From a virus: a DNA stretch of 17,098 nucleotides. Below, in pieces: positions 1,585 through 17,098 of the stretch. The stretch lies in the UHGV virus genome UHGV-1343268, one strand, 5' to 3'. The notes below the pieces were generated by a model that was given only the letters and a program-made list of their open reading frames with translations, was not told the origin of the DNA and made no database searches. A program made the translations under genes and the position numbers. Position 1 is the stretch's first letter, and each line of letters opens with the position of its first letter.

Positions 1585-1873
1585 AGCGACCTCCCTTAAC
1601 GTGGTGCTGCCGCTATTCTAAGTTGTAATAGCTCAGACTCCAACTGACAGTTTGCGCAGCCAGAATACAATCAAACCTAGCGGTACGCTTTGTGCGAAGA
1701 GCGGAAGTTCGCAACTCCAACAACTTTGATAACCTCCGCATAAATGGAAATCGGTTGCTTACATAAGTTTATTGGCTGAGGTGCATATCGGGAAGCAAGC
1801 GGGCAGTGCCATCTTATCTGTTACAATCCCGAAATGATTGTTCAGCCCGCTTTTTCTAACAGCATGTAAACAT

Positions 1874-3013
1874 TCAGCTGCAAATTTCGTTGTTGCTGCA
1901 TGTTATCTCTTCAAGTGCAGCGGCGTTATAATCAACGGAATGATCAACCTGTGATGTAGGTATGCCAAAAAATTCAACCCCTGACATAATCATGTTGCCG
2001 ATATTCTCTCGCTGTTTATCACTGAGCCTGTCCCACCACTCAGGGGATGAATATGTATTTTCGGCCTTTGTGAAGAAAAAATACAGAAGGGTATTGAACA
2101 TCCTGTTAGCTGGGATCTTAATTAGTGTCCGTATAAAACGTCTGATAATTGTTGAAGTTCTCAGCCAACTGAACACTACATATCCCTTACCTCCGCAGGA
2201 AAAAGCATTGAAACATACTTGTTCCGCCGACACTGTAAGATCGCTCAAATCCTGAATTTTGGTCCCATCGAAATCCCTCTCCGGTGAAAGAATTGACGAA
2301 ACTACAATTGGTAAAGGCTCTGCAAAAGTGAAGATAACACTTTCAATTTCTGAAAATTGCCTGCTAAGTAGGATGCGGTCGAGGCTAGTTTTAAGATTAT
2401 TTAATTCAATTATTGCTGCATTTAAGCCACTTTGGTGCTGGTCGATTAATTTCTGAATATAATACTGTTCAACTTGTAGCTTTCCTTTATCGGCATTTTT
2501 AGCAAAATCAGAAGATAGCACTCCCCCTTCTTTGGCATAAATTTCTTTAGACAATGAACGAAACATTAAGGCAAAGCACTGCTCGTCCGTGCCTGTAAAT
2601 TTTTCGTTCTCTAGGCATGAAAATAAGATTCTGTCATGAACTGCACAAAATCCTGTAAAAGTGGATGCCTGATTGATACCGATCTTCTCGGGAAGCCATT
2701 TTCCGTTGTTTCTCATCAGGCTTGCTAAGTTCATTATCACCCCCATGACGTGATTGCTGGAGTCGGCGATCGCCTTAAGGCTACTGCTCTTAGATATCGT
2801 ATGCGCCTGAACGATGCGTTTATCACAATCTTCGTGCATGGATGCTGGCGCATAACATGCCTTTCTCTGCGAGAGAGACTTTGAAAATTTCAGTGCCTCG
2901 GCTTTGGATACCGGAGTTTCACGATCTCGACCAAGATGGCACTTTTTATACTTAAGTCCTGAATTACACCAGCACTTATCATTTCTTCCTAATTTCACTT
3001 TATTGTTTCCCAC
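1874..3013 (-). CDS. Cargo protein with N-terminal SEC-C-type zinc-binding motif, function unknown (about 379 aa); candidate accessory or defence gene
   Basis: ORF on the same strand as D and ogr and inserted between them. N-terminus KCWCNSGLKYKKCH matches the SEC-C metal-binding motif (C-x-C-x8-C-H). Markedly AT-rich compared with the flanking phage genes. The annotated start is a GTG with no clear SD; an in-frame GTG five codons downstream (MKLGRND...) is an alternative. The remainder of the protein has no domain I can name. Confidence 0.7.
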   Translation of the reverse strand: MGNNKVKLGRNDKCWCNSGLKYKKCHLGRDRETPVSKAEALKFSKSLSQRKACYAPASMHEDCDKRIVQAHTISKSSSLKAIADSSNHVMGVIMNLASLMRNNGKWLPEKIGINQASTFTGFCAVHDRILFSCLENEKFTGTDEQCFALMFRSLSKEIYAKEGGVLSSDFAKNADKGKLQVEQYYIQKLIDQHQSGLNAAIIELNNLKTSLDRILLSRQFSEIESVIFTFAEPLPIVVSSILSPERDFDGTKIQDLSDLTVSAEQVCFNAFSCGGKGYVVFSWLRTSTIIRRFIRTLIKIPANRMFNTLLYFFFTKAENTYSSPEWWDRLSDKQRENIGNMIMSGVEFFGIPTSQVDHSVDYNAAALEEITCSNNEICS

Positions 3014-3412
3014 GAAATTAATGTTCTATAACAAAAACACTTATCGAAAATAGGTGTAATTTATCACTCCGGCAGCTAAAAGATCATCTGCCACATGCAC
3101 GATAATAAATCTTCCTTGCGTCATCATCTCCCTCTGTTCTTAAATCAGGTGTTGCCTGTGTGCGGAGGATTCGCGAAGTACAGTAGCCGAAATGCATGAT
3201 CTTACCCATCAATGGTGAGCACGCGATAATAAGTGAGTCCCTAATTGACCACTCATGGCAATACAACTTCAACCAGCATTCATGACCACTATCCGTGGAT
3301 TAACTGTTACATAAGCAACACCTGCTCTAGGCACAAAGCGGGCTGCCAGATTGGGTCTGGCACTGTGCTGTGAGTGTGTCAGTTCTGGTTTGAGTCAATA
3401 CATCTAATTTGC

Positions 3413-4513
3413 TCATTCTGTTTCTGCTATCCATTCCGGGATTTTTGCTTCAAGCTCAAGCTGTGTGGTAAAGCCGCTGTTATCAATGGTGTGCTCGGCT
3501 TTTGCAATAATCCAGTCCTGATTATCGATGTCACTTTTGAAGCCTGTCACCGTGCCATGCATTTCGGGATAGAGTTCTGCGCGTCCACGCGCCAGCGTGA
3601 TGGAGAATGATGCGGCTCCGCGTTGTAGCTGCTGCCACTTTGCCGCCGCTGCACGTCTTGCTGCCTGCTCGTTCTGATAAGTCTTGCGTAACACAAACAC
3701 GTTGCCTTCCGCACCTTCCATATAGTCACCTTCACGGCTGCTGCTTTTCTCCTTTTTCGGTTTGCGGCGTTTCACGCTGACTTTTTTCTTTTTCCCGTAA
3801 TTAAGATCAAGCCAGTAAGCACGTACCCCCGTATACGCTTCGCGGTCAGCAATGCGGAACTGATGGCGATCGCCACTGCTGCGCGTGATGGCGAACGATG
3901 GCAACGGCTGGCCCTGTGCGTTCACGCCACCGCCTGGCATGATGAATAACAGATTACTGCTTTTTACCGTAGTGATTGCGCCCAGCATTTCCGCCATGCG
4001 CGTAAGGAAGGACATGTCGCTTTCTTCGGTCTGGTCGGCGTGGTCGATTTCAATATCCATCAGCATTTCGCTGATTTGTGGTTTCAGACCGTACCGATGA
4101 GCGATGGCGGATACCACGCGCTCAACGGTCACATCATGCCAGGACACCTCACGTTTAACGTTAAATTCATCCCGAAAATCTGCGCTTCTGGCTGAAACAG
4201 TCAGCCTGTCCGGCGGTCCTTCGTGAGCGATTTCATCAACAATGTAAGTGCCTTTTTCTGTCAGCGGTTCTCCTTTCCAGCCAATGAGAACCGTCAGGCG
4301 CGCGCCCCGTGGCGGTAGCTGCAACTGACCATCCGCATCATCCAGCGTGATGGTGAGCAGGTCCGCTTCAAATCCCCGGTTGTCGGTCAGTGACAGGCTC
4401 ATCAGGCGCTCTGCCACGCCGGACAGTGTTTCCCCCTCCGCGAGAATATCAAAATCCGGCATTTTCACGGGGTCTGTGCTCTGACTGAGCAATTGCATGG
4501 TGGTATCGGTCAT
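3413..4513 (-). CDS. D: P2 gpD-like tail protein (late control D family)
   Basis: Supplied ORF 3413..4645; the likely start is the internal ATG at 4513 (MTDTTMQLLSQ...) preceded by GGGAGGGA. Length (about 366 aa) and sequence character are consistent with the gpD family; position next to ogr matches P2 synteny. Confidence 0.88.
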   Translation of the reverse strand: MTDTTMQLLSQSTDPVKMPDFDILAEGETLSGVAERLMSLSLTDNRGFEADLLTITLDDADGQLQLPPRGARLTVLIGWKGEPLTEKGTYIVDEIAHEGPPDRLTVSARSADFRDEFNVKREVSWHDVTVERVVSAIAHRYGLKPQISEMLMDIEIDHADQTEESDMSFLTRMAEMLGAITTVKSSNLLFIMPGGGVNAQGQPLPSFAITRSSGDRHQFRIADREAYTGVRAYWLDLNYGKKKKVSVKRRKPKKEKSSSREGDYMEGAEGNVFVLRKTYQNEQAARRAAAAKWQQLQRGAASFSITLARGRAELYPEMHGTVTGFKSDIDNQDWIIAKAEHTIDNSGFTTQLELEAKIPEWIAETE

Positions 4514-4670
4514 CTGTTCCCTCCCTGTGCGGCATGGTCGCATGTGCGTGCATAGGGGGTTACTGCTTTTTGTTGTCGCCGTGGCGGGAGAACGGCGCAG
4601 GGGAGAGATTACGCGCGTGGTGGGTGATGATTGTTGCCGAATCATTTAACGGATACAAGGGGCTGAAGCT

Positions 4671-5855
4671 ATGAGTGAAACTCGTTTTCATGGTGCCCGT
4701 GTTACGGAAAGTACCGACCTGGTAACAGCGATTAATGATGTTGATTCCAGTGTTATCGGTATCGTGGCAACGGCGGATGATGCGGACGCGGAGCTGTTCC
4801 CGCTGAACAAGCCCACACTGCTGACCCGCGTCAATGACGTGCTGGGAAAATGCGGGACTACGGGGACGCTTTATCGTGCGCTTAAGGCTATTGCAGACCA
4901 GGTGAGCACAAAAGTGATCGTCGTTCGCGTGGCTGAACACAAAGAAGAAGGCGGTAAGACGCAGGATCAACTGGTTATCGGTGGTTCTGAATCTGACGGC
5001 AGCTATACGGGGATGTATGCGCTGCTTGTTGCAGAGCAGGATGAAAGCATCGGATACCGTCCGCGTATTCTGGCCGCGCCGGAGCTGGACACGGAGGCGG
5101 TGACAAAATCCCTGTGCGTGATTGCGGGTAAACTGCGCGCGTTTGTGTATGCCTCATGTCATGACTGTAACACGATGGCTGAGGCAATTACCTACCGCCA
5201 GAAATTCAACGAACGTGAGGTGATGCTCTTATGGCCGGACTTCATCGCCTACAACCCGAAAAGTGGCAAAAACGAAACGTTCCCCGCGCCTGCCTATGCG
5301 TGCGGCCTTCGTGCGTACATTGACCATGAGCAGGGCTGGCACAAATCGCTGTCCAACGTTCCTGTTAAAAATGTGCTGGGGATGTCCAGGCATGTTTTCT
5401 GGTCGTTGCAGGCCGAAGACAGTGATGCCAACAGCCTCAACAACAAAGAAATCACGACCATTATTCGTCGCAACGGGTTCCGCTTCTGGGGCAACCGCAC
5501 ACCGGAAACGAACGCCTACATCTTTGAGGTGTATACCCGAACCGCACAGGTGCTGGCTGATTCAATTGCGGAAGCGCAGTTTGAAACCATCGACAGTCCA
5601 CTGACGCCTGCGAACGTGAAGGATGTTATCAGTGCCATCAGGGCAAAACTGGATTCGCTGGTTACTGCCGGGAAACTGATTGGCGCGGAGTGCTGGTATG
5701 ACGTGGTGGATAACAGCACCACGGATTTACGTCAGGGGCGTGTGCGTATTCGCTACAAATATACGCCCGTTCCGCCACTGGAAGACATGGAGCTTTACCA
5801 GACGTTTACTGATGAATACTTTGAACCCGCATTTGCGGTGCTGGGAGGTGCCTGA
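4671..5855 (+). CDS. FI: Contractile tail sheath protein (P2 gpFI-like)
   Basis: 394 aa. Shares recalled gpFI motifs: DADAE-FPLNKP near the N-terminus, LRAF, WPDF, EQGWHK-LSNV, RRNGFRFWGNRT, YTRTAQV, YKYTPVPPLE. SD AAGGGG 8 nt upstream of the ATG. Confidence 0.93.
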   Translation: MSETRFHGARVTESTDLVTAINDVDSSVIGIVATADDADAELFPLNKPTLLTRVNDVLGKCGTTGTLYRALKAIADQVSTKVIVVRVAEHKEEGGKTQDQLVIGGSESDGSYTGMYALLVAEQDESIGYRPRILAAPELDTEAVTKSLCVIAGKLRAFVYASCHDCNTMAEAITYRQKFNEREVMLLWPDFIAYNPKSGKNETFPAPAYACGLRAYIDHEQGWHKSLSNVPVKNVLGMSRHVFWSLQAEDSDANSLNNKEITTIIRRNGFRFWGNRTPETNAYIFEVYTRTAQVLADSIAEAQFETIDSPLTPANVKDVISAIRAKLDSLVTAGKLIGAECWYDVVDNSTTDLRQGRVRIRYKYTPVPPLEDMELYQTFTDEYFEPAFAVLGGA

Positions 5856-6367
5856 TGGCTGTACCAAAACATCTTCGCTTTTTTACGCTGTTTGTGGATG
5901 GTGAAAACGAAGTGGGTAAGGTGACGTCCGTCACTCTGCCTAAGCTGACGCGCAAAACCGACAGCTACCGGGGTGGTGGCATGATGGGTGCGGTAAGTAT
6001 TGATCTCGGTCTGGACGACTCCGCGCTTGATGCGAGCTTTGTCATGGGGGGCGCAGTTCGTGAGCTGTTCCTTAAGTATGGCGGCACGATTGACGGCACG
6101 CTGCTGCGTTTTGCGGGTGAATATTACACCGATGCAGAAAGCGACCTGTATGAAGTCGAAATGCGCGGACGTGTGACGGAAATTGATATGGGGGAAGCCA
6201 AACAGGGCGAAGCCACATCACACACTTACGCCATTAAAAACACCTACTACAAGCTGAGTGTTAACGATCGCCCGTTGTGGGAGATTGACCTGCTGAACTT
6301 CATTTACCGGAAGGACGGCAAGGACATTGTGCCCGATCGCATCCGTTCCGCGCTCGGGCTTGGCTGA
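5855..6367 (+). CDS. FII: Tail tube protein (P2 gpFII-like)
   Basis: 170 aa. Start overlaps the FI stop (TGATG) with GGGAGGTG as SD. Has the LPKLTRK...YRGGGM motif recalled for gpFII. Sits immediately after the sheath gene as in P2. Confidence 0.9.
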   Translation: MAVPKHLRFFTLFVDGENEVGKVTSVTLPKLTRKTDSYRGGGMMGAVSIDLGLDDSALDASFVMGGAVRELFLKYGGTIDGTLLRFAGEYYTDAESDLYEVEMRGRVTEIDMGEAKQGEATSHTYAIKNTYYKLSVNDRPLWEIDLLNFIYRKDGKDIVPDRIRSALGLG

Positions 6368-6421
6368 TAAGTAATATGCAGGCGGCGCAGTGCGTCGCCT
6401 CTGACTGAAAGGAGTTTCCTG

Positions 6422-6787
6422 ATGAAAGAGACGAAAAACATCGATACCGAAAACACGGTAGTTGCTGACACTGTGAAAGAAACCAGTGAGCGTGGTGTAA
6501 AACTTACCCAACCAATTGAGCGAGGCGGCGAAAAAATCACGTATGTGGAGATCACCGGGGCTATTGAGCAGGCTGGATCTCTGCGAGATTTGTCGCTGTC
6601 TGATGTGCTGAATCTGAAAGCGGAATCCATGTTTACGCTGCTGTCACGCGTGACATCACCGCGACTGGATGAAGTGACGATCAAAAAAATGGCATCCCGT
6701 GACTTTATTCAGTTATGTGTGGTTGCCGTAAATTTTTTGAGCGGTGCGGACTCTGGCGGGAAGAACGAACAGGCGACGGAAGCCTGA
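6422..6787 (+). CDS. E: Tail assembly chaperone (P2 gpE-like), zero-frame product
   Basis: 121-aa ORF with SD AAAGGAG, placed between the tube and tape-measure genes. Contains the slippery site TTTTTTG at 6733-6739. Confidence 0.85.
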   Translation: MKETKNIDTENTVVADTVKETSERGVKLTQPIERGGEKITYVEITGAIEQAGSLRDLSLSDVLNLKAESMFTLLSRVTSPRLDEVTIKKMASRDFIQLCVVAVNFLSGADSGGKNEQATEA

Positions 6788-6951
6788 TCACGGTTGTGTG
6801 CTTTGAGCACATAGAAGACTTTGTGGCAGATATTGCCGTTATTTTTAACTGGTCGCCCGCCGAAATCTTCATGATGACGCCCGGCGAAGTGGTTAGCTGG
6901 CGTGAGCGGGCGGCACTTCGCAGCGGGAATGCAGACAATGAAGACTCTTGA
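6422..6951 (+). CDS. E': gpE+E' fusion chaperone made by programmed -1 ribosomal frameshift
   Basis: The overlapping ORF 6715..6951 is in the -1 frame relative to E (start coordinates 6422 and 6715 differ by one in frame) and has no plausible start of its own. The heptamer T6G at 6733-6739 sits in the overlap. This matches the conserved E/E' frameshift of P2 and the analogous lambda G/GT. The E' ORF ends where T begins. Confidence 0.75.
6733..6739 (+). promoter_or_regulatory. Slippery heptamer TTTTTTG for the -1 programmed frameshift E to E'
   Basis: Seen in sequence, in the E/E' overlap with the correct frame relationship. Confidence 0.7.
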
Positions 6952-9745
6952 TATCCGGGTCGCTTTCAGCGCCGTTGACAGGCTGACCCGGCCTGCCGAA
7001 AACGCCCGCCGCCTGATGGGGCAGTTTGGTGACTCCATCCAGCGAACGCAGGGGGCGATTAAAAATCTCGAGCGTCAGGCTCGTTCATTTGAGCGCGCCC
7101 GCGACGCTGTCAGTAAAGCGGATGCGGGTATCGTGAAAGCACGACGCCAGCTTAACGCCCTTAATCAGTTACAACGCACGGGTACAGTGCTCAGCGAAAA
7201 ACAACAAAAGCTGATGCAGCAGTTAAGCACCCGGCTTGAACGCCTGAATGAATCGCGCACACGGGAAATTCAGAAAATGCGGGAGCTTGGCGGAGAGCTG
7301 AAACGCCACGGCATTTCCCTGACAGGCAGCGATAACACCATCCAGCAGGCCATCAGACGCACCGAACAGTACAACAACCAGCTTGAACGCGAACGGCAGG
7401 CGCTTGCGCGTGTAACGCGGGCGCGTGAGTGGTATTCGCGCGCGCAGGAAACCGCGGGAAAACTGAAAACAGGTGGTGCGCTGGCAATTGGTGCGGCAGC
7501 GGCGGGCGGCTATGCTGCCGGGCGTTTTTTGCAGCCCGCGATCGGGTTCGGCAAAGAGATGTCCCGCGTTCAGGCGCTGACGCGAATCGACCAGAACAGC
7601 CCGCAGTTTAAGGCGCTGCGTGAGCAGGCGTTAAAACTTGGCTCTGAAACGCAGTTCACCGCAGGCGATGCCGCCAGTGGGCAGGCATTTCTTGCAATGG
7701 CAGGCTTCACACCGCAGGCCATTCAGGCTGCGCTTCCCGGAGTGCTGAGCATGGCAACGGCTGGCGGTATGGATCTCGGCGAGACGGCAGATATTGGCTC
7801 AAATATCCTGACGCAGTTCGGCCTTTCTGCTGACCAGATGGACCGGGTCGGTGACACACTCACCGCAGCGTTTACCCGTACCAACACTGACCTTCGCGCA
7901 CTGGGCGAAACCATGAAATATGCAGGTCCGGTGGCGGGTAAGCTGGGAATATCGCTGGAGCAGGCCGCAGCGATGGCTGGTGTGCTGGCGAATATGGGCA
8001 TCAGAGGGAGTGATGCCGGGACGGCAATGCGTGCCAGCCTGGCTCGTCTGGCATCACCGCCAAAGGCGGCGGCAGAAGCTCTGAAAGAGCTGGGCGTGTC
8101 CGTCTCGGATGCCGGGGGTAAAATGCGCCCGATGGAGGATGTGCTGGCCGACCTTTATAAAGCCACCCGCAAATACGGGGAAGTTGACCGGGTATCGTTC
8201 TTTAAGGACATTGCCGGAGAAGAGGCTTTCACATCGTTTATGGCGCTCGTTGATGCAGTGGGTGACGGTTCCTTACCCAAACTGAGAAAAGAACTTGAAG
8301 GCGCGCGCGGTGAGGCTGAACGCACAGCAAAGGTTATGGCCAACAACCTTGACGGCGATCTGAAATCACTCGGCAGTGCATGGGAAGGGTTGCGCATCCG
8401 CATTGCAGATCTGATTGACGGTCCGCTGCGTTCTGTCACGCAGTGGCTCACGCGGGTGGTATCAAGGGTGACGGCGCTGGCGCAGGCCCATCCGGCACTG
8501 ACGCGCCAGCTACTGATAGCAGGCGGTGCGTTGCTGGCAATGACTGCAACGGTTGGCTCGTTGTCGCTGGCTATTGGTGTGCTTGCTGGTCCGCTGGCAA
8601 AACTGCGTCTTGGTTTTTCTCTCCTGACCGGATCAATGAATGCTGTCAGGGTCCTGCCAGCACTATGGGGAATGGTGACGGGTTCCGTTTCTTTACTGGG
8701 AGGCGCTATCGGGGCGCTGTTCAGTCCGGTTGGTCTTATCGTGGCTGCGCTTGCCGGAGCTGCCGTCCTTATCTGGAAATACTGGGATCCCATCAGGGCA
8801 TTTTTTGCCGGGGTGTTCAGCGGGATTATGGAAAGGCTGAACCCGTTGCGTGAAACCTTTGAACGGTTTGGCCCTGTTTTTGACGCAATCGGAAGCGGGA
8901 TCAGCCAGGTGTTTAACTGGTTTAAATCGCTGCTGTCACCGATGGAGTCCAGCAAGGAAACGCTGGATAAATGTACCAGTGCTGGCGAGATATTCGGTAA
9001 CGTTCTTGGCGGTGCGTTACAACTTGTTCTGACACCTGCAAAAATGCTACTGGATACGCTGGCGTGGATACTTGAAAAACTTGGCGTCCTTCCGGATGAA
9101 GCGGAAAGGGCGCGCAAGAAAATCGAAGACGCACAGCGTGCGGCCATTCTTCAGGATAAGGTTGCCTTACTTCAGGGGGACCTGGCGAAAATCAATCCGC
9201 CGAAGCCTGTGGAAAATGGCAATGGCACCGGAGGTGATAAACCCAAAGACAACAAACCGCTCACAGACAGCAATACCGGGACGCTACGCAGACTCAGCAA
9301 AATTGCTGATAACACAGGTAAGCTGGTTGATGAGACGAAAAAACGCATTGGCCCTGGCGATATTGTCTTTAAGAACCTGCCCCGCGCACTTGCTGTTCGT
9401 GGGGAGTGGCAGGAGCGGAAGATTGCGCAGGTCAGTAAGCCTGCCCCCGCAATTAATATCACACCCGTAGTCCCGGCTCCGCTGCCTCCGGCGCTGGTCC
9501 CTGTTGTTGCGGCCAGCTCCCGCCCGGTGGCGGAGGCCATACGATCGCCAGTGGCATCAGTTCCTGCAGCTTCCCGTAATCGGGAGCCTGCTGTCTCCAG
9601 ATTTGGCGGTGAAATTCATGTTCATCTGCATAACGTTGTTACGCAGAATCCCCGCGAACTGGCGAAACTGGTCGGTGAAATGGTCAGGGCAGAAATGGAA
9701 CGGCGCGCCCGTGCCGGGCGTGGCAGTTTTTACGATAAAGATTGA
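6938..9745 (+). CDS. T: Tail tape measure protein (P2 gpT-like)
   Basis: Very long ORF (supplied as 6902..9745, 947 aa). Coiled-coil-rich N-terminal half, hydrophobic Gly/Ala-rich segments in the middle, located directly after E/E'. Start is uncertain among GTG 6902, ATG 6929 and ATG 6938; 6938 is chosen because GGGA lies about 9 nt upstream. Confidence 0.9.
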   Translation: MKTLDIRVAFSAVDRLTRPAENARRLMGQFGDSIQRTQGAIKNLERQARSFERARDAVSKADAGIVKARRQLNALNQLQRTGTVLSEKQQKLMQQLSTRLERLNESRTREIQKMRELGGELKRHGISLTGSDNTIQQAIRRTEQYNNQLERERQALARVTRAREWYSRAQETAGKLKTGGALAIGAAAAGGYAAGRFLQPAIGFGKEMSRVQALTRIDQNSPQFKALREQALKLGSETQFTAGDAASGQAFLAMAGFTPQAIQAALPGVLSMATAGGMDLGETADIGSNILTQFGLSADQMDRVGDTLTAAFTRTNTDLRALGETMKYAGPVAGKLGISLEQAAAMAGVLANMGIRGSDAGTAMRASLARLASPPKAAAEALKELGVSVSDAGGKMRPMEDVLADLYKATRKYGEVDRVSFFKDIAGEEAFTSFMALVDAVGDGSLPKLRKELEGARGEAERTAKVMANNLDGDLKSLGSAWEGLRIRIADLIDGPLRSVTQWLTRVVSRVTALAQAHPALTRQLLIAGGALLAMTATVGSLSLAIGVLAGPLAKLRLGFSLLTGSMNAVRVLPALWGMVTGSVSLLGGAIGALFSPVGLIVAALAGAAVLIWKYWDPIRAFFAGVFSGIMERLNPLRETFERFGPVFDAIGSGISQVFNWFKSLLSPMESSKETLDKCTSAGEIFGNVLGGALQLVLTPAKMLLDTLAWILEKLGVLPDEAERARKKIEDAQRAAILQDKVALLQGDLAKINPPKPVENGNGTGGDKPKDNKPLTDSNTGTLRRLSKIADNTGKLVDETKKRIGPGDIVFKNLPRALAVRGEWQERKIAQVSKPAPAINITPVVPAPLPPALVPVVAASSRPVAEAIRSPVASVPAASRNREPAVSRFGGEIHVHLHNVVTQNPRELAKLVGEMVRAEMERRARAGRGSFYDKD

Positions 9746-9751
9746 GGAGTC

Positions 9752-10246
9752 ATGGCCATGATGATGATCTACGGCATGTTTGTTTTTGAGCTGCGCACGT
9801 TGCCGCATCAGCAGTTACAGCAAAATAAAAGCTGGCGGCATGTGAAAAATGAACGCGTTAACCGTTCAGCAAGCTGGCAGTATATCGGGGCAGGCGATGA
9901 TCGCATCGTTCTTTCTGGTGTGCTTTATCCTGAAATTACAGGTGGCGAAGTGTCGCTTTCGTTGCTGACCACGCAGGCATATACAGGACGCCCCTGGCCT
10001 CTGATTGATGGTGTCGGGCAGATTTACGGCATGTATGTACTGACTGAAACGAATACGACCCGCTCCGAGTTTGATCGCTACGGTAAGGCGAAAAAGATAG
10101 AATTTTCACTGACTCTTGAACGCTGTGATGAGGATTTGCGGGAGCGCCTGCAATCCTCATCGTTCAGCGATATGTTGTCCGGCTTCAAAGATAAGGTGAC
10201 ATCATCCCTTAATAGCGCGGCCAGCTCAGTTAAGGGGCTGCTCTGA
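9752..10246 (+). CDS. U: Tail protein U (P2 gpU-like)
   Basis: 164 aa, SD GAGGAG, immediately downstream of T. Size and position match P2 gpU. Confidence 0.82.
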   Translation: MAMMMIYGMFVFELRTLPHQQLQQNKSWRHVKNERVNRSASWQYIGAGDDRIVLSGVLYPEITGGEVSLSLLTTQAYTGRPWPLIDGVGQIYGMYVLTETNTTRSEFDRYGKAKKIEFSLTLERCDEDLRERLQSSSFSDMLSGFKDKVTSSLNSAASSVKGLL

Positions 10247-10322
10247 TTTAACGTATGTCGCCAATTTCCTGATGAAGGTGACTGGCGACTTGCTGTTGTA
10301 TGTCCTTCTCAGAAAATTGTTT

Positions 10323-10351
10323 TTGAATAACAAACAACAGGATTTTATAAT
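10323..10351 (+). promoter_or_regulatory. Near-consensus sigma70 promoter for the acetyltransferase cargo gene
   Basis: TTGAAT (10323-10328), 17-nt spacer, TATAAT (10346-10351), in an AT-rich intergenic region about 50 nt upstream of the cargo gene SD. Confidence 0.6.
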
Positions 10352-10402
10352 CTCTTAACCTTATAACATGTGTGGTCTGAAATAATAATTAAGGAGATTA
10401 TC

Positions 10403-10975
10403 GTGCTGTCTTACCTAATGGCAATTCACTTTGTTTTATTTGGGAACTCTACTAATTTAAAAAACTTCTGGAAACATGAAGTAATTCGGCGGAAACGTAT
10501 GGATATCTGGAGGCTTTTAAGAGAGAAAAAGCAGCGTAACAGGAATTTCCTTTTCTGGTGGCGGTTGGCTAACGAAATGTATATTAATGGTAATAAATTA
10601 CATAAGAAAGCAGCCAAGAAGTTAAACAGTAAAATAATTAACAAATTTGGTTGCGAAATTGGATTGGGCGCAAATATTGGAAAAGGGTTAACAATTCCCC
10701 ATCATGCTGGAATTGTTGTTCATTTTGCTGTTGATGCTGGTGAAAATCTGGTGTTACGACAGAATACGACCATTGGACAGATAGATGGTGACATACCTGG
10801 TTCAAGAGTAAAAATTGGTAGCAACGTTGATATCGGAGCTAATTGTTGCATCATTGGATTATCCCGTAAAATTGGGGATAATGTAAAAATAGGTGCAATG
10901 TCTTTTATAAATAAAGATATACCATCGAACTGCACATATATAACTAAAAAGAGCGGTGCTGTATTGTATAAATAG
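10403..10975 (+). CDS. Hexapeptide-repeat acyltransferase, serine-O-acetyltransferase (CysE/WcaB)-like; cargo gene
   Basis: The C-terminal half carries repeated [LIV]-G-x-x-x-x hexapeptide units (IGLGANIGKGLTI, KIGSNVDIGANCCIIG, KIGDNVKIGAMSFI) resembling the left-handed beta-helix of CysE-type acetyltransferases. Strongly AT-rich. SD AAGGAG (10391-10396) precedes an in-frame GTG at 10403; the ATG at 10418 is an alternative start. The supplied ORF begins at GTG 10370. Confidence 0.78.
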   Translation: MLSYLMAIHFVLFGNSTNLKNFWKHEVIRRKRMDIWRLLREKKQRNRNFLFWWRLANEMYINGNKLHKKAAKKLNSKIINKFGCEIGLGANIGKGLTIPHHAGIVVHFAVDAGENLVLRQNTTIGQIDGDIPGSRVKIGSNVDIGANCCIIGLSRKIGDNVKIGAMSFINKDIPSNCTYITKKSGAVLYK

Positions 10976-10984
10976 AGTACATAA

Positions 10985-11020
10985 AGCCATCGATATTTCT
11001 ATCGATGGCTTTTTCTTTTT
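10985..11020. terminator. Strong intrinsic terminator between the convergent acetyltransferase and tfa genes
   Basis: Perfect 11-bp stem AGCCATCGATA (10985-10995) / TATCGATGGCT (11000-11010), loop TTTC, then TTTTCTTTTT. The T-run overlaps the tfa stop codon. Confidence 0.75.
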
Positions 11021-11597
11021 ATTGTGGGGCGACTGGCCACTCAATATCTGCTGCTACTGTTGTATCAACACGATGCAACAATACTCGATATGTCTTCCAT
11101 GCAGCCAGTAACGATGTCTCTTCCTCCGTCGCAATATCTAAATCTATAGCATCCTGAAGTGGTGCAATATGCTCACTGGCTACCTGCATCAGGCTGTTTT
11201 TTGTTTCTTCCGCCTCCCTTATCCGAAATAGTTTTTCTGCTTCTGCATCTTTCACCCAGGATGTGCCGTTCCACTTCTGATACTCTCCATACGGCGACAA
11301 CCAGGTAACATTTTCCGGTAATGGACCGAGTTCAGAAATAAATAACGAGTCCCCTGATGCCACGTCATAAACCGTTTTACCCCGATGGTCTTCAACGAGA
11401 TGCCACGATGCCTCATCACTGTTGAAAACGGCCACGAAGCCAGCCGGAATATCTGGCGGGGCAATATCGGTACTGTTTGCAGGCAGACCTGTATGAGGTG
11501 GAATGTATGCATCACCTTCACCAATAAACTCATTGGTTCCGGTCAGTAGATTATAAATTTTTATGGTCCGTGAGTGTTCACTCATTCTGAATGTCAT
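11019..11597 (-). CDS. tfa: Tail fibre assembly chaperone (lambda Tfa / P2 gpG class)
   Basis: 192 aa. C-terminal [30 protein letters not shown] resembles the conserved Tfa C-terminus. The start ATG overlaps the tail-fibre stop (TAATG), indicating translational coupling. Confidence 0.85.
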
Positions 11598-13916
11598 TAT
11601 GCAAGCCTCACAATATAGTTAAATGCGATGTTTTTTACGGTGTTTTCTTTGTTACCCGTAGCGTTAACGGTGATGGTGTGTCCGTGGGGACCAATAATGA
11701 CAGAATGGGCATGAGCACCAATGCCGATAGTGTGGTTATGGGCACCGATATATACATTGTGAGCATGCCCGCCTGCGCTCGACGTGGTACCAGTACCTAA
11801 CGCAGCGTTATAACCGGCTGATACACCATTCCCCGCGCCAGTGTGACCAACAGGTATATTGTGTGAATGATTTCCAGCGCTATTCGTAGTTTTTGTGCCG
11901 TAATCAAATGAACTGGTCGTTTTAGTACCGTAATCAAACGACGATGTGGTTTTCGTCCCCAAATCCGTACTGGATGCGCTGGCGCTGTGGGTGTGCGATT
12001 TAATGCCGTCCTGTTCCTGAGACAATACGGCACGACCACTGCCGGGCTTGCCCTTAATCGTCCAGCCACGCATATCAGGAATAACGCCTGACGGATAAGC
12101 GACTGCAAGTTTCGGGTATGCAGATTTGTCAAAAGTCTGCCCCTGCATCAGGGCATAGCCAGACGGAACGGTATCTGATGGCCACGGGATTGGTGCACCG
12201 ACTGGATAAAACTCTGCAGGAGGATGAGCCGAGGTGTAAAGCTGCGCCCACGGCGACCAGTTTGCGTCGGTCGTATCCCGTCGTGAACGAATAAATGCCG
12301 GAGCATGAGCACCGCTTGTACCACTCCAGCCGATGAGTAACTCACCTTCGCCAACGGCTGTCATCCCTTTCAGGTGAATGATATTTCCATACGCTGTTGG
12401 ATATCCGTTGTTATACACCTCGTATAACTCAAGACCTGTTGCCCCCTGCGTATTGTCTGTCAGCGCGGTTACCCGACCTTTTGAAGACAGATTAACTGAT
12501 GATACTGCTGTTCCACCTGACGGTAATGCCCCGATCTCTGATGCCGTTGGCTTATTTCTGGAGTTATAGTCCCTTCGCCAGCCAGGTGAATAATCTGNNN
12601 NNNNNNNNNNNNNNNNNNNNNNNNNNNNNNNNNNNNNNNNNNNNNNNNNNNNNNNNNNNNAATGCGGATCGTCATCGCTGACTTTATCCCCATTACTTCA
12701 ATGACAGCTCCTGCGAGATGAATATTACCGCAGCCAGTATCAGTAATGATTTTATTATTGCCATAAGACCAGGAACCCTTGCACATCCAGTATGGATGGT
12801 TAAATGCTCCCTGAGAATCCAGCCACTCGATAAACTGTGCAGTCGTCCAGTCTCCTGTTGTTGTGCTTACTGACCCACCGAAGGCACGGCTGGCACCAAT
12901 ATTTTTCGTAAAGGTGTCTTTGCCAGGGATATCCGCACCGTTCTTATCTTTCTGCAGACGTTTCTCAGCATTGTCATTGGCTGCTTTTACTGCCTTTGGC
13001 GTTGCTGCCAGCGTTTCAGACGTGCTGTTGGTCGCGCTGCTTAGCTGGACTATCCCTTTCTGTGCTGTCGTTGCATCCTGTGCGGTGTATTTCCCGTCAG
13101 CCAGGTCATACGCGGCCTTAACTGCTTTTGGCGTTGCCGCCAGCGTTTCAGACGTGCTGTTGGTCGCGCTGCTTAGCTGGACTATCCCTTTCTGTGCTGT
13201 CGTTGCATCCTGTGCGGTGTATTTCCCGTCAGCCAGGTCATACGCGGCCTTAACTGCTTTTGGCGTTGCCGCCAGCGTTTCAGANNNNNNNNNNCAGCCA
13301 GGTCATACGCGGCCTTAACTGCTTTTGGCGTTGCCGCCAGCGTTTCAGAATCGCTGTTAGTGGCGCTACTGAGTTGAACAAAGCCTTTTGCGGTCAGCGA
13401 GGCATCCGGGTGACATCGTGACTGTTCATGCTCTTTCAGTTTGTTATCCACGTAATCCACTGTGGCCATCACCATGGTGTTATCCACGGTAAGCGCCACA
13501 GTGGCAGTGCTGGATACGGTCAGAATGGTGCGAAATGTTTGTGCACGTCCGGACCCTTCGGCAACGGCTGGCTTGTAACTTTCGGCAGTATTGCCCACCG
13601 CGATTAAATCGCCGTGCTCATCAAACACACCAATTTCCCGGATCCAGAATCCGCCCGTTTCTGGAGGAATAACCAGCTCCGCAATAATGCGGTTCTGATG
13701 TGTTGCGTCCAGGATGACGCGATTAACAGTGTGTCGCCACACCTCATGCACCAGACGGGTCTGCTTACTGTCTGGTGTGGGCAACGCGCCGCCACCGTCG
13801 CCCACGGCCATATGAGTCAGGCGGACAGGCTTACCATCTGGCGCGGCTGCCTGAGCTAATTTTTTGGCACCTGTATCGGTGATAACGGTTTTAAATTTTC
13901 GTGTTGTGGTACTCAT
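11597..13916 (-). CDS. H: Mosaic tail fibre protein (P2 gpH-like N-terminus, lambda Stf-like C-terminus); interrupted by two N-runs
   Basis: N-terminal ORF (13916 downward) [24 protein letters not shown]...HEVWRH...[15 protein letters not shown]...[13 protein letters not shown]...[20 protein letters not shown] matches the gpH N-terminal baseplate-attachment region as I recall it. C-terminal segment ...[34 protein letters not shown]...HxH repeats...[11 protein letters not shown] matches the lambda Stf-type tip. By manual translation the frame is continuous from the 12598-12660 gap to the stop at 11597. True length and frame across the gaps cannot be determined. Confidence 0.82.
12598..12660. 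other. Run of 63 ambiguous bases (N), assembly gap or masked segment inside the tail fibre gene
   Basis: Seen in sequence. Confidence 0.95.
12981..13400. repeat. Tandem 132-bp direct repeats (44-aa coding units) inside the tail fibre gene
   Basis: Units 13021-13152 and 13153-13284 appear identical on reading. Diverged partial copies flank them (about 12981-13020 and 13295-13400). The 10-N run at 13285-13294 replaces roughly 77 nt of a unit. On the coding strand the unit encodes ...[44 protein letters not shown]... Confidence 0.9.
13285..13294. other. Run of 10 ambiguous bases (N) inside the tandem-repeat array, probably a collapsed-repeat gap
   Basis: Seen in sequence; the flanking sequence shows repeat phase is not preserved across the N-run. 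Confidence 0.95.
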
Positions 13917-13918
13917 GC

Positions 13919-14449
13919 TTAATCGTCCGGATAAATGGTAATAACTTCACCGTCATGAGTTGCCGCCGCTGCAAAAATATCCCCCGGAATTTCCTGAATG
14001 ATATTCAGCCCTGTCATGTGGCGGCTGACCGGACGGGCATCAGCAATCAACCGCTCCATTTCCAGATACATTTCCTCCGTCACGCCACTGTCCAGTGTGC
14101 CGACTTCAACGGTAAATGTTCCCGGTTCTCCGCCGAACTCCCACCACTCAGACACGCGAATGAGGTATCCCAGCGGCTCAATGGCCCTGCGCAGTGCGCT
14201 GATGGTCCCTTTGTGTCGGTGTGTCAGCCATGCATCACGAATCACCTGTCGTTTTGTCTCTTCCGGCCAGTTGCGATCCCAGCGGTCAACGGAAAATGCC
14301 CAGGCGAGATAAGGCAGCAGGTGCACCGGGCAGGTGTCCGGCGACCACAGCGTGTTGAGGTCTACCGGGATGTCTGTAATGCGCGTTCCGACAGCTTCGG
14401 CACAACGCATGAAACTGCTGGCTGATGGTGGTAACAGTGAATTACTCAT
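13919..14449 (-). CDS. I: Baseplate protein (P2 gpI-like)
   Basis: Supplied ORF 13919..14482; the likely start is the internal ATG at 14449 (MSNSLLPPSASSFMRC...), which overlaps the J stop (AATGAGTAA). Motifs LW-PDTCP and LPYLAWAFSVDRWD match recalled gpI. Sits between J and H as in P2. Confidence 0.88.
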   Translation of the reverse strand: MSNSLLPPSASSFMRCAEAVGTRITDIPVDLNTLWSPDTCPVHLLPYLAWAFSVDRWDRNWPEETKRQVIRDAWLTHRHKGTISALRRAIEPLGYLIRVSEWWEFGGEPGTFTVEVGTLDSGVTEEMYLEMERLIADARPVSRHMTGLNIIQEIPGDIFAAAATHDGEVITIYPDD

Positions 14450-15338
14450 TGCGCCCACCTTCGCTGATGGTGAACGACTCACAGCGCGCCGCCTGTATGT
14501 CGCTGATGGCCATATTCTGTGTGGGTTCGATTATCTCCACGCGTTGCACACCGTGCACATGCAGTGCGGCAGCAATGGCGGACAACGCCACGTCCTGACC
14601 GATAAGCCCCTGCTCAGCCAGCCACTTCCTGAACGACGATTCAGCCGCCGCCAGAATAGGTTCGGATTCCGGGCCGGGGTAAAAGTACAGTTTTGCATTC
14701 AGCCGCCATGTCACGATTCTGGCGCTCTGTACCGTCAGGCGGTCGGCCACCGGGCGGGTATCCTCTGCATTCAGAACGGCGCGAACGGTATTAAGCAACG
14801 CCTCCGTTGCTGTGCCGTCGCCTTCAGTGGACAGGATGGAAACCGTCACATTTGCCGGAGACGGACTGATAGCCCGCGCATCACGCACCAGACCGCTGGC
14901 GCTGCGGGCAAAATACTCGTATGCACCTGACGGGCCAGCAACACTCAGGCCATCGTACGCCCGCTGCGCCCGCAGTCTCAGCGATGTGTCGCTTTCCATC
15001 ACCGCGTCGGTGGTATCCGTTGCCGGAGTGATAACCAGGCGCTTTGTGTTCATATTGCCCGCGAGGTTGTCCAGGTCTGTCCCGGTGCTGTGGCTTAACA
15101 TGCAGGCGCGTGCACCCTCATTGACCCGCTGGCGTAACAGCATTTCACGAAACGCTGTTGTCTGGGCGATAACGTTCAGGGGTTCCGATTCCAGCTCCAG
15201 CGCGGCGGAGACGGCTTCACGCTGTTCGGCAGGATAGGACGCAATCATCATGGCCTTTGTGTCAGCCAGAATTGCCTCAAAATCAGGCTTCGCGATGATG
15301 GCGGGTTCCGGTAACTGGGAAAGGTCAACAGCAGGCAT
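14442..15338 (-). CDS. J: Baseplate assembly protein J (P2 gpJ-like)
   Basis: 298 aa, between W and I, size as expected for gpJ. Assignment rests mainly on synteny and size. Confidence 0.88.
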   Translation of the reverse strand: MPAVDLSQLPEPAIIAKPDFEAILADTKAMMIASYPAEQREAVSAALELESEPLNVIAQTTAFREMLLRQRVNEGARACMLSHSTGTDLDNLAGNMNTKRLVITPATDTTDAVMESDTSLRLRAQRAYDGLSVAGPSGAYEYFARSASGLVRDARAISPSPANVTVSILSTEGDGTATEALLNTVRAVLNAEDTRPVADRLTVQSARIVTWRLNAKLYFYPGPESEPILAAAESSFRKWLAEQGLIGQDVALSAIAAALHVHGVQRVEIIEPTQNMAISDIQAARCESFTISEGGRNE

Positions 15339-15341
15339 GAT

Positions 15342-15692
15342 TTACTCCCTCAGCGTGATGGTTAACTCAACATTCTGCATGGTCTGCATGACAGTGCCCG
15401 ACAGCGTCACCCCGGCGCGGCCTCCCGCTTTCCAGACAACGTCGATGGCATCCAGGGCAATGCGGGGTTCCCATCGTGTCAGCGCAATCACGGCAGCACT
15501 CATGCATTGCAGACGCGTGGTGTTATTCATGGGTTCGTCAATCAAATCAGGCACAAGGCTGCCATATTCCCGTCGCATAACCCGGCTGGCCAGCGGGGTG
15601 GTCAGGATGTCCCTGACTGACTGTTTCAGGTGCTCCGTATCGTTCAGGTTTCCCGTCCCGTCCGGATTCATTCCTGTGTAGCGGGTTGTCAC
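15342..15692 (-). CDS. W: Baseplate wedge protein W (P2 gpW / T4 gp25-like)
   Basis: 116 aa, size and position (V then W then J) as in P2. Start overlaps the V stop (ATGA). Confidence 0.85.
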   Translation of the reverse strand: MTTRYTGMNPDGTGNLNDTEHLKQSVRDILTTPLASRVMRREYGSLVPDLIDEPMNNTTRLQCMSAAVIALTRWEPRIALDAIDVVWKAGGRAGVTLSGTVMQTMQNVELTITLRE

Positions 15693-16270
15693 TGCGGGCC
15701 TCCTGTCGAATCGCTGCCACCTTTAACGCCACCGTGTTTATGCGTATGCACTGTGATACCGTTTGAGGTGAAATTGCCGCCGCTGTGCGTGATATTGCCG
15801 CTCATCTTTCCCCCTTTTGTGACGTCAAGCGTCGCCGTTCTCAGAAGGTTTGTGCATTCCACGACGGGCGTATCCAGTTTCACGCTGACGGATGCCTGCA
15901 GGCTGGCTGTTTTCATGCCGCTGGCGCTCAGTGCGCCAGCGTCTGCGTCGTAGCGGAACACCGCGCCGTCCGGTGCGGTGATCACGATTTCTTTCAGGCT
16001 TTTGCCGGGGGCCGGACTGGCATCACTCCACAGACTGCCAATTATCATGGCGGTTTCCGGGTTGCCGCCAATGCAGGCAATTACCACCTGTTCGCCTGGT
16101 GATGGCGGTAGCCACACATTGAAGGCTCCCGCGCGCGTGGTGTTCCAGCGCAGCCAGCCTGTTTCCAGTTCGCCGCTGCGAACGCGCACGCGCCAGGACT
16201 TCTCATCAACTTCAGAGATGATCCCGGTGCGGATGATGTTGCTCAGCAGTCGCATGAGTTCTGCGCTCAC
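15689..16270 (-). CDS. V: Baseplate spike / assembly protein V (P2 gpV-like)
   Basis: 193 aa with a Gly-rich C-terminus; lies upstream of W. Start overlaps the stop of the preceding gene. Confidence 0.85.
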   Translation of the reverse strand: MSAELMRLLSNIIRTGIISEVDEKSWRVRVRSGELETGWLRWNTTRAGAFNVWLPPSPGEQVVIACIGGNPETAMIIGSLWSDASPAPGKSLKEIVITAPDGAVFRYDADAGALSASGMKTASLQASVSVKLDTPVVECTNLLRTATLDVTKGGKMSGNITHSGGNFTSNGITVHTHKHGGVKGGSDSTGGPQ

Positions 16271-16911
16271 CGTACAGCCTCCGCAATCCGGCCCAGCACC
16301 GTGTTATAAATCAGGCGCTCATCTGCCTGGCTGATACCCAGCAGCTCACGTACCGGGTAATCGGTGAAAATGCCCGGCGCAACCTGATCGCGCTCACCGA
16401 ACTGATGAACGCGTGCAATACGTGCGGCCACGCCGCTGTAACCCACCGTCACACCGGAAGCATCTGCACGGGCTTTCAGGTAGCGGGCGGTGCGCAGTTT
16501 TACGAACATGGGGACGCGCCTGGTGCTGTCCTGGTTGATGCGCTGGGTGCGTATTTCCAGAAAACGGTCAATGTCATCCCGGTAAAACGTGCGGATATTG
16601 TTTTTATCCTCATCCCACCCGGTAATGGTTCGCCCGTATTTCCCCGTGTCGTGATGCCAGTTTTTCAGCGTGCGTGCTTCGTTATTCCAGATAAAGCGAA
16701 TGCGCTCCTGTATCCGGGTTACGCGGCGTCTGCGTGGTGTCCATTCGGTCCCGTCCGGCGCTTTTTGTGACCGGATACGTGCCTGCTGGGCGCGACGTAA
16801 ATCCTGTGCCAGCTTTCTGGCGATGTTATTGATGGCCTGCTGATTCAGGCTGTCGCGGATAGCCTCAAAGGTTTCATCCACGCGGGTGAATGCCTTATCC
16901 ATCGCTTTCAC
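16267..16911 (-). CDS. S: Virion morphogenesis / tail completion protein (gpS-like)
   Basis: 214-aa ORF immediately upstream of V on the same strand, the position of P2 S. Start is GTG at 16911 or ATG at 16902 (GGGG about 8 nt upstream). Assignment rests mainly on synteny; it is larger than P2 gpS (about 150 aa). Confidence 0.55.
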   Translation of the reverse strand: MKAMDKAFTRVDETFEAIRDSLNQQAINNIARKLAQDLRRAQQARIRSQKAPDGTEWTPRRRRVTRIQERIRFIWNNEARTLKNWHHDTGKYGRTITGWDEDKNNIRTFYRDDIDRFLEIRTQRINQDSTRRVPMFVKLRTARYLKARADASGVTVGYSGVAARIARVHQFGERDQVAPGIFTDYPVRELLGISQADERLIYNTVLGRIAEAVR

Positions 16912-17098
16912 CCCACGTCACATCCTGGAATACATGCGACCAGTCGCCTTCGGAAGAAGGCAGACGGGGTTTTGGCTCCGGCAGGTGTTCTGCCTGCGGT
17001 GTGCCCTGACTGTTGCGCGTGATGCGAACGCGTTCCCGCAGGGGGAGCGTAAACAGGAGATCGGCGCTGTCATCGTCATTGATAACGGCAGAAAATTT
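16895..17098 (-). CDS. 3' portion of an upstream late gene, possibly gpR-like tail completion protein (partial, continues beyond the window)
   Basis: Manual translation of the minus strand gives an open frame from the window edge to TAA at 16895-16897 (...LLFTLPLRERVRITRNSQGTPQAEHLPEPKPRLPSSEGDWSHVFQDVTWGESDG). It overlaps the S start. Identity is inferred from position only. Confidence 0.35.
   Translation of the reverse strand, partial: KFSAVINDDDSADLLFTLPLRERVRITRNSQGTPQAEHLPEPKPRLPSSEGDWSHVFQDVTWGESDG

Follow-up and report, generated by a model that had tools for sequence, protein, structure and literature searches.

The shuffling of modules among phage tail fibres was already recognised in the early 1990s, and early accounts are said to be those of Haggård-Ljungquist et al. 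in 1992, Hendrix and Duda in 1992 and Sandmeier in 1994. Among the phages with related fibres, P2 has the fibre protein gpH (NP_046775) and a gpG-type chaperone, P88 has an invertible Mu-type Sv/U/U'/Sv' segment with an invertase, and Mu has a gix site and an invertase. The needle tip of gp37 in T4 is the receptor-binding site, in which individual residues have been mapped as receptor contacts, and gp37 binds both LPS and OmpC (PMC6957217). The Stf protein of lambda binds OmpC, and reciprocal lambda-P2 Stf chimeras are functional, which provides an engineered precedent for exchanges of this kind (PMC11338833).

The stretch of DNA analysed here, 17,098 nucleotides in full length and hereafter called the window, very probably encodes the receptor-binding tail fibre and the cognate Tfa of a P88-like E. 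coli prophage (Xuanwuvirus, P2 family), as a mosaic of at least four modules (Table 1). The fibre gene is located on the minus strand, with its start at 13916 and its stop codon at 11597-11599, and the span 11019-13916, which a preliminary description made from the sequence alone had taken to be a fibre and chaperone region, does enclose the fibre gene and tfa (11597 to 11019). In that description the fibre was treated as one continuous reading frame and both gaps were missed; in the window, the gene is cut into three pieces in three different frames because of two runs of N.

Table 1. Features of the fibre region and its surroundings, with positions in the window.
Feature	Position	Strand	Evidence
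Fibre piece A (aa 1-207): gpH-type N-terminal domain and first Phage_fiber_2 repeat	13296..13916	-	Pfam, identity to P2 gpH
Assembly gap of 10 N within tandem repeat	13285..13294		Run of N; shift from frame 0 to frame 2
Tandem 132-bp (44-aa) Phage_fiber_2 shaft repeats	12966..13349	-	TRF, PF03406
Mu S'-type knob domain 1 (AEKRLQKD...AMTIRI)	12661..12975	-	PDB 8JU3, Mu Sv', PhiR29
Assembly gap of 63 N, frame-changing	12598..12660		N run, alignment to closed genome
End of knob domain 1 and knob domain 2	12209..12597	-	Mu Sv' alignment, PhiR29
Collar, HxH needle and head, six HxH motifs	11600..12208	-	PF07484, PDB 2XGF
Head loop between ascending and descending HxH strands, hypervariable, presumed receptor contact	11768..11860	-	Alignments
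tfa, tail fibre assembly chaperone, 192 aa	11019..11597	-	PF02413, E = 1e-40
Terminator-like hairpin with a stem of 13 bp, located where tfa and the acetyltransferase gene converge	10983..11012		Consensus match only
Hexapeptide-repeat acetyltransferase gene, GC ~36%, not part of the fibre	10418..10975	+	PHROG 2154, E = 4e-86; weak Pfam Hexapep

The proximal module is of the gpH type, as had been proposed for the first 200 or so residues: the first 207 residues match PF12571 (residues 6-153; E = 5.4e-55; profile positions 3-149 of 150 in Pfam) and are 70% identical to residues 4-204 of P2 gpH. This N-terminal stretch of about 207 residues, with PF12571 and Phage_fiber_2 repeats, is shared both with gpH, to which there is no similarity beyond residue ~250, and with gp39 of P88. 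The gene context is also that of the P2 and P88 systems, in that the fibre gene directly follows gpI (PF09684; 13919-14482), with gpJ (14442-15338) upstream and tfa downstream, an order that is kept in closed genomes. Furthermore, piece A is continuous at 97% identity with the P88 backbone genes I, J, W and V.

The shaft is built from tandem repeats with a 12-residue core motif, for which TRF gave a period of 132 bp, 2.2 copies and a 98% match, and two of the 132-bp units are 100% identical. PF03406 was identified by Pfam once in piece A (E = 3.5e-20) and in three stretches of piece B (E = 2e-51), amounting to one and three repeat copies, respectively. Identical 55-mers flank the 10-N gap (13230-13284 and 13295-13349), which fits a repeat that was not resolved in a k=55 graph assembly, and the reading frame across the gap is restored either by a 77-nt fill of the repeat unit or by merging the 55-nt overlap. 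The true copy number is three, four or more, and two to four copies are present in closed genomes. It is possible that expansion of the identical repeats tunes the length of the fibre.

The middle of the fibre, about 250 residues, is neither gpH-like nor similar to Stf of lambda PaPa but of the Mu S' type. The structure of the Mu tail fibre S/S' (PDB 8JU3), which represents S' in the G(-) form, matches the knob region with an E-value of 2e-86, and residues 249-503 of an intact relative align with residues 17-250 of Mu Sv' at 49% identity, with 69-80% identity in the first knob (69% to Sv' residues 17-123 for knob 1 of the window). At the DNA level, knob 1 is 96.5% identical to the stf gene of the lambdoid phage PhiR29, and the segment with the end of knob 1 and knob 2 is 98% identical to the same gene. 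The junction from repeat to knob (RL.KD.NGADIP) is shared with Mu S (5YVQ). Mu S' continues into a C-terminal receptor-binding domain of its own, whereas the window fibre has a gp37-type collar and needle in that place.

The distal module shares the collar, the HxH needle, the head and an identical set of 11 C-terminal residues with T4 gp37, the rest of which (1026 residues in full) is absent from the window. Pfam identified the Collar domain PF07484 (E = 1e-11), and the structure of the T4 gp37 tip (PDB 2XGF) was matched with an E-value of 4e-77 in an alignment that reached the last residue. Over ~205 residues, the identity is 66-69% to T4 gp37 and 65-69% to lambda Stf (orf-314). The assignment of the last 300 or so residues to the lambda Stf/T4 gp37 type was thus right about the type, but the module is only ~203-207 residues long. 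All of the sequence strings that had been quoted for the tip are present, with the iterated unit occurring twice and a third time in part.

Six HxH motifs are present in the last 332 residues, where shuffling of the residues gave a mean of 0.72 and six or more motifs in 2 of 100,000 shuffles. The conservation of these motifs relative to gp37 also held, in that six of the seven HxH positions in T4 align; the exception is H915-x-H917 on the ascending strand, in place of which the window fibre has a second SFDYGTKTT unit. The indels are matched on both strands, with the loss of H915-x-H917 from the ascending strand and a spacing of 9 residues on the descending strand vs 14 in T4. The descending strand is thereby 5 residues shorter than in T4, which predicts a shorter needle with six metal sites. 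In T4, the needle is a trimer stapled by iron held by pairs of histidines, and the 66-69% identity to 2XGF suggests that the needle described here would also be a metal-stapled trimer. Lambda Stf differs in having eight HxH motifs and a head insert that is larger by ~43 residues, and its N-terminus, with the tail attachment and the Ala/Ser-rich shaft, is absent from the window fibre.

The preliminary description had considered the fibre a mosaic of two parts, a gpH N-terminus joined to a lambda Stf C-terminus, and had read the receptor from the type of tip as LPS core or OmpC. Both ends of this model are borne out, given the gpH-like N-terminus and the lambda/T4-like nature of Tfa and of the last ~205 residues, and the binding of gp37 to LPS and OmpC (PMC6957217) and of lambda Stf to OmpC (PMC11338833) fits the receptor assignment. 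However, the model overlooks the 250-residue Mu S'-type module between the two parts as well as a break inside the tip, where the head loop is unlike those of T4, lambda and PhiR29. The DNA match to stf of PhiR29, which belongs to the lambdoid PhiR29/mEp460 Stf type, is 96-98% across knob and collar (window 11921-13059), breaks in the stretch 11735-11920 that includes the head loop, and is absent across the loop itself, the PhiR29 loop being unrelated. We therefore consider the two-part model improbable and favour a mosaic of at least four modules.

Nor does the tip type fix the receptor class. Of the 11 T4 residues mapped as contacts, only 4 are kept in the window tip, and none of the three OmpC-specific ones, in a head-loop alignment to T4 that is itself uncertain, and lambda Stf, a known OmpC binder, keeps only ~3 of the 11. 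Our guess for the receptor is a sugar of the LPS core and not OmpC, and the guess is weak because of the uncertain alignment of the head loop to T4. The head-loop allele of the window was found in 213 of 5,426 complete E. coli genomes and also in the P1-like phage Ro157c2YLVW.

The start codon of tfa overlaps the stop codon of the fibre gene (ATAATG), and the proposal of a lambda-type chaperone downstream of the fibre agrees with the 89% identity to lambda Tfa over 191 residues. T4 gp38 is a distant homolog (29% identity, E = 3e-18). Only the C-terminal 66 residues (127-192) match P2 gpG and Mu U, at 42% identity, and the chaperone thus differs from the gpG type of P2 in being lambda-type except for this segment. 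A lambda-like Tfa that has only its C-terminal domain in common with gpG of P2 and U of Mu agrees with the modular model of Tfa outlined in PMC9608196. In NCBIfam, neither the fibre nor Tfa was assigned to a family.

The backbone of P88 is 97% identical to the window over 3403-10252 and 13296-17098, and P88 has its invertible segment and invertase where the window has 10253-13295. The same flanks around a different fibre segment support the host-range cassette swap that had been postulated. The P1-like phage Ro157c2YLVW gave a 94% DNA match over window positions 10411-12240 and carries, as does PhiR29, a donor-like segment. In P88, a serine invertase gene, inverted crossover sites and an alternative Sv'/U' pair on the opposite strand are all found in the corresponding position, in place of which the window carries a single fixed cassette together with a lambda-type Tfa and an acetyltransferase. 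We also considered a Mu/P1-type invertible switch, which was first suggested by the fragmented reading frames and an ORF of ~200 residues beside tfa. This was ruled out because the fragmentation is due to the N runs, the ORF encodes the acetyltransferase, and the gix site and invertase of Mu are absent: no invertase ORF was identified in the window, the Mu gix 26-mer was not found in the window with up to 3 mismatches allowed, and no long inverted repeats were detected within 10200-14000. A dip in GC content at 12501-13000 was dropped as an indication of mosaicism because the 63 N in that interval contribute to it.

Another explanation to be weighed is that the prophage is defective and the gene has decayed into a pseudogene, from which no functional fibre is made. 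The gene is incomplete in the window, where ~67 nt and some number of 132-nt repeats are missing, and its integrity is inferred from relatives. Furthermore, the fibre and gpW genes are frameshifted in one related closed genome, which shows that decay does occur in this prophage family; in an O157:H7 relative, the tape measure gene is disrupted by an IS element. Against this, all three sequenced pieces of the fibre gene are open over their whole length, both changes of frame fall exactly on the N runs and are removed by fills of the expected length, and the neighbouring tail genes in the window are all intact ORFs. Closed genomes have 67 nt (~22 codons, TTPTTSSGGGTTNAQFTYINHGT) where the window has 63 N, according to an alignment in which query positions 1257-1319 correspond to H1 positions 1060-1126, and insertion of this fill and the 77-nt repeat-unit fill yields a reconstructed fibre ORF of 796 residues, vs 752 if the two 55-mers overlap. 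In closed E. coli genomes, the same gene is a single ORF of 708-710 residues. A pseudogene is therefore, in our view, unlikely.

Most improbable of all is an assembly artefact in which the N runs join contigs from P2-like and lambdoid prophages of the same genome into a mosaic that is absent in the cell. The gene does contain two N runs with a change of frame at each, and an E. coli genome has Stf-like sequence at a median of 2 places, a situation in which short-read assemblies break. However, no gap interrupts 3403-12597, the stretch that includes the gp37-type tip and tfa as well as the P2-type tail genes FI-U; piece B (12661-13284; 624 nt) alone floats between gaps and is collinear with closed genomes, and a chimeric scaffold is rejected by the closed genomes JNE151685 and PS1Thumoskin9, in which the same gene is a single ORF with the same flanks.

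We hypothesize that the mosaic fibre of the P88-like prophage would work as follows. The gpH-type N-terminal domain would plug the fibre into a P2-type baseplate, and the shaft is formed by the 44-residue Phage_fiber_2 repeats, a conserved 15-residue motif of which also acts as a recombination joint common to the fibres of P2, lambda, Mu and P1. The shaft is followed by two Mu S'-type knob domains, the collar and a needle that would be intertwined and stapled by metal ions, with the six HxH motifs per chain giving six predicted octahedral sites in the trimer, and the small head loop at the end would touch the receptor. The homologies of the modules, their breakpoints and the gene context are observed, while the formation of a trimer, the binding of metal and the action of the chaperone are predicted. 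Tfa is translated from the overlapping start codon; its lambda-type N-terminal domain may bind the gp37/Stf-type tip, while its conserved C-terminal helical domain could drive trimerisation. The distal two-thirds of the fibre and tfa were probably gained through homologous recombination, with lambdoid or P1-like phages as partners, and stand in place of the invertible Mu-type cassette of P88.

The fibre is a genuine mosaic, but the shuffling behind it is of an ordinary, textbook kind, with an allele that is common in sequenced E. coli, and the region opens no new question. Its value is that of a worked example of host-range re-tooling in temperate coliphages, in which a conserved P2-type baseplate adaptor is combined, at a shared repeat motif, with distal modules in circulation between phages of the lambdoid, Mu-like, P1-like and T4-like groups, and in which the matching chaperone travels with the tip. 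It is of use in the annotation of prophages and in the choice of junction points for the engineering of fibres or tailocins.

The acetyltransferase gene is located within the segment that differs from P88, and its scores against EpsC, CysE and WcaB in NCBIfam were all below the cut-offs. One speculative hypothesis, which we consider doubtful, is that it is a lysogenic-conversion enzyme that acetylates the surface polysaccharide seen by gp37-type tips and thereby shields the lysogen from superinfection, in which case tip, chaperone and enzyme would make up a mobile three-gene module. A strict linkage of the enzyme to the tip allele found no support, since the enzyme is present in 530 of the 5,426 E. 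coli genomes vs 213 for the tip, and O157:H7 and strain 2013C-3342 keep the acetyltransferase with other fibres. The order fibre-tfa-acetyltransferase is found again in a range of temperate phages, P2-like and P1-like ones among them, in which the enzymes have diverged to 35-45% identity. Two terminator-like sites were identified within 10200-11100, vs 0.2 expected from shuffled sequences.

Our comparisons place the window in the tail-gene region of an Escherichia coli prophage of the P2 family, with 97% identity to Escherichia phage P88 (Xuanwuvirus, Peduoviridae) in each of two stretches (Table). The fibre encoded here is a new combination of modules that are themselves well known and, as judged by sequence comparison, is made of at least four segments that differ in their nearest relatives. 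A preliminary description had presented it as a two-part protein, with a P2 gpH-like N-terminus, a lambda Stf-like tip and a Tfa chaperone. That interpretation was right in kind and the observation behind it was real: the positions 11019-13916 exactly bracket two minus-strand genes, the fibre gene and tfa, and every string quoted was found in the window sequence. However, two gaps had gone unnoticed, the module sizes were off, and both a Mu S'-type module between the two parts and an additional break in the tip were left out.

Features of the prophage tail region (window coordinates)
Feature	Position	Strand	Remarks
Fibre gene	start 13916, stop 11597-11599	minus	
tfa	11597 to 11019	minus	ATG overlaps fibre stop codon
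gpD, FI, FII, E, T, U	within 3403-10252		P88-like stretch
Fibre-gene start, genes I, J, W, V	within 13296-17098		P88-like stretch
Acetyltransferase gene (hexapeptide repeats)	10370/10418-10975	plus	low GC, ~36%; directly downstream of tfa, convergent
N run, 10 N	13285-13294		inside 132-bp tandem repeat, identical 55-mers either side
N run, 63 N	12598-12660		67 nt in closed genomes
379-aa ORF	1874-3013	minus	N-terminal SEC-C motif (PF02810, E 2e-8); no other family match
62-aa ORF	3084-3272		inside 1625-3402

Residues 1-207 comprise an N-terminal domain of the P2 gpH type (PF12571, E 5e-55; 70% identity to gpH residues 4-204) and, in addition, the first Phage_fiber_2 repeat. The shaft is built of 44-aa Phage_fiber_2 units, the 12-residue core motif of which is common to P2 gpH, lambda Stf, Mu S and PhiR29 Stf, and the homology to P88 ends inside this motif region, at 13295/13296. 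The middle module of about 250 aa aligns to the Mu G(-) fibre S' (PDB 8JU3, E 2e-86), with 69-80% identity in the first of its two knob domains and 49% over Sv' residues 17-250, whereas no similarity was found to P2 gpH or lambda PaPa Stf. Its DNA shares 96-98% identity with the side tail fibre gene of the lambdoid phage PhiR29_1.

The last ~205 aa comprise a collar (PF07484), a needle and a head, and match the crystal structure of the T4 gp37 tip (2XGF, E 4e-77, 66-69% identity) and lambda orf-314 (65-69% identity), which bears out a C-terminus of the Stf/gp37 type, albeit as a module of this corrected size. The fibre contains six HxH motifs, as compared to seven in T4 gp37, eight in lambda Stf and a mean of 0.72 in residue shuffles, among which six were reached in 2 of 100,000. 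Six of the seven T4 motifs have an aligned counterpart, and the position of T4 H915-x-H917 is taken by a second SFDYGTKTT unit. The spacing is 42 / 34 / 9, 9, 9 in the window and 32, 14 / 37 / 14, 9, 9 in T4; the ascending strand has one motif less, and at the corresponding level the descending strand is shortened by 5 residues. Read as coupled indels, these differences would give a shorter needle with six predicted metal sites. A needle stapled by metal ions is as such known from T4 (Bartual et al., 2010, also cited in PMC6957217).

A further breakpoint was found within the tip: the PhiR29 DNA match is interrupted across 11735-11920, and the head loop between the two HxH sets (11768-11860) resembles none of its counterparts in T4, lambda and PhiR29. 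Of the eleven T4 residues to which contacts with LPS or OmpC have been assigned (PMC6957217), four (I933, G940, G942, Y949) are conserved here, with none of the three OmpC-specific ones among them. Lambda Stf, which binds OmpC (PMC11338833), itself retains no more than about three of these residues. The type of tip does therefore not fix the receptor, and the earlier assignment to the LPS core or OmpC class was an overreach; as a weak guess, we favor an LPS core sugar over OmpC.

The 192-aa Tfa protein (PF02413) shares 89% identity with lambda Tfa from end to end and 29% with T4 gp38. P2 gpG and Mu U resemble only its C-terminal 66 residues (42%), and thus the chaperone type tracks the tip rather than the backbone. 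This pattern fits the modular model of Tfa, which assigns binding of the fibre tip to a variable N-terminal domain and trimerisation to a conserved helical domain at the C-terminus. It is likewise in line with reports of lambda and Mu chaperones that remain part of the virion (PMC9608196, citing North et al., 2019).

The fibre gene is interrupted in the window by the two N runs, which break it into pieces of 207, 208 and 332 codons in three different frames. The 10-N gap has the look of a repeat that a short-read graph assembly left unresolved. Filling the gaps with 77 nt of the repeat unit and with the 67 nt of the closed genomes gives one clean 796-aa ORF, and merging the overlap at the 55-mers likewise keeps the frame, so that the repeat number may be 3, 4 or more. 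Two 132-bp units among the shaft repeats (12966-13349) are 100% identical in DNA, which points to recent expansion or assembly collapse. Closed-genome relatives carry 2-4 Phage_fiber_2 copies, and fibre length thus varies in 44-aa steps. In closed E. coli genomes, the same gene is a single ORF of 708-710 aa with the same neighbours, the proteins being annotated in RefSeq as 'phage tail protein' and 'tail fiber assembly protein'. DNA identity to these relatives is 96-98% outside the repeat region and the first knob, the latter being only 78% identical in the closed genome PS1Thumoskin9. Since the gp37-type tip, tfa and the P2-type genes FI-U all lie on the gap-free stretch 3403-12597, the linkage of a lambda/T4-type tip to a P2-type tail is independent of scaffolding.

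In P88 the flanks are the same, but the region from the N-terminal part of the fibre to gene U is a Mu/P1-type invertible segment (Sv, U, U', Sv') with a DNA invertase; the window showed no invertase ORF, no gix site at up to 3 mismatches and, within 10200-14000, no long inverted repeats. Distal fibres of yet other kinds occur in further members of this prophage family: the middle module differs in strain 2013C-3342, and an O157:H7 strain has an additional macro-domain gene. The P1-like phage vB_EcoM-Ro157c2YLVW is 94% identical to window 10411-12240, which extends from the collar-to-tip region through tfa to the acetyltransferase gene, and there this stretch occupies the usual place of the P1 invertible C segment. 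Taken together, these comparisons identify the region from the fibre N-terminus to gene U as a recombination hot spot. For P88, experiments have demonstrated that hypervariable regions of the fibre determine host range (PMC5285337), and engineered lambda-P2 Stf chimeras are functional (PMC11338833). Some part of the query is matched in 4,493 of 5,426 complete E. coli genomes, the specific head-loop allele in 213. The macro-domain protein gene was observed between the fibre gene and tfa in the version of this prophage carried by E. coli O157:H7 F3113 (NZ_CP038374, locus positions 5727-6629).

The best matches of the acetyltransferase were EpsC, CysE and WcaB, all under the cut-offs, and its RefSeq label is 'serine O-acetyltransferase'. 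The fibre-tfa-acetyltransferase layout recurs in Ro157c2YLVW (enzyme 92% identical in amino acids), Citrobacter phage phiNP (45%), Escherichia phage 613R2 (35%) and Hafnia phage yong2 (35%). The gene was identified in 530 of the 5,426 E. coli genomes, O157:H7 and O104:H4 among them, and in 66 plasmid places; against the 213 genomes with the tip allele, this indicates no strict linkage. It may be a conversion gene that modifies surface polysaccharide.

The tail genes FI-FII-E-T-U (4671-10246, plus strand) are inverted relative to P2 and convergent on H and tfa (11019-16911, minus), with gpD (3413-4645, minus) set apart from gpU. This arrangement is shared by P88 and closed E. coli prophages, and it is thus a feature of the Xuanwuvirus lineage rather than a strain-specific rearrangement. 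Finally, the ~1.8 kb between a hok/gef-like region and gpD (1625-3402) have no counterpart in P88, and their GC content of about 39-43% suggests another accessory insertion.
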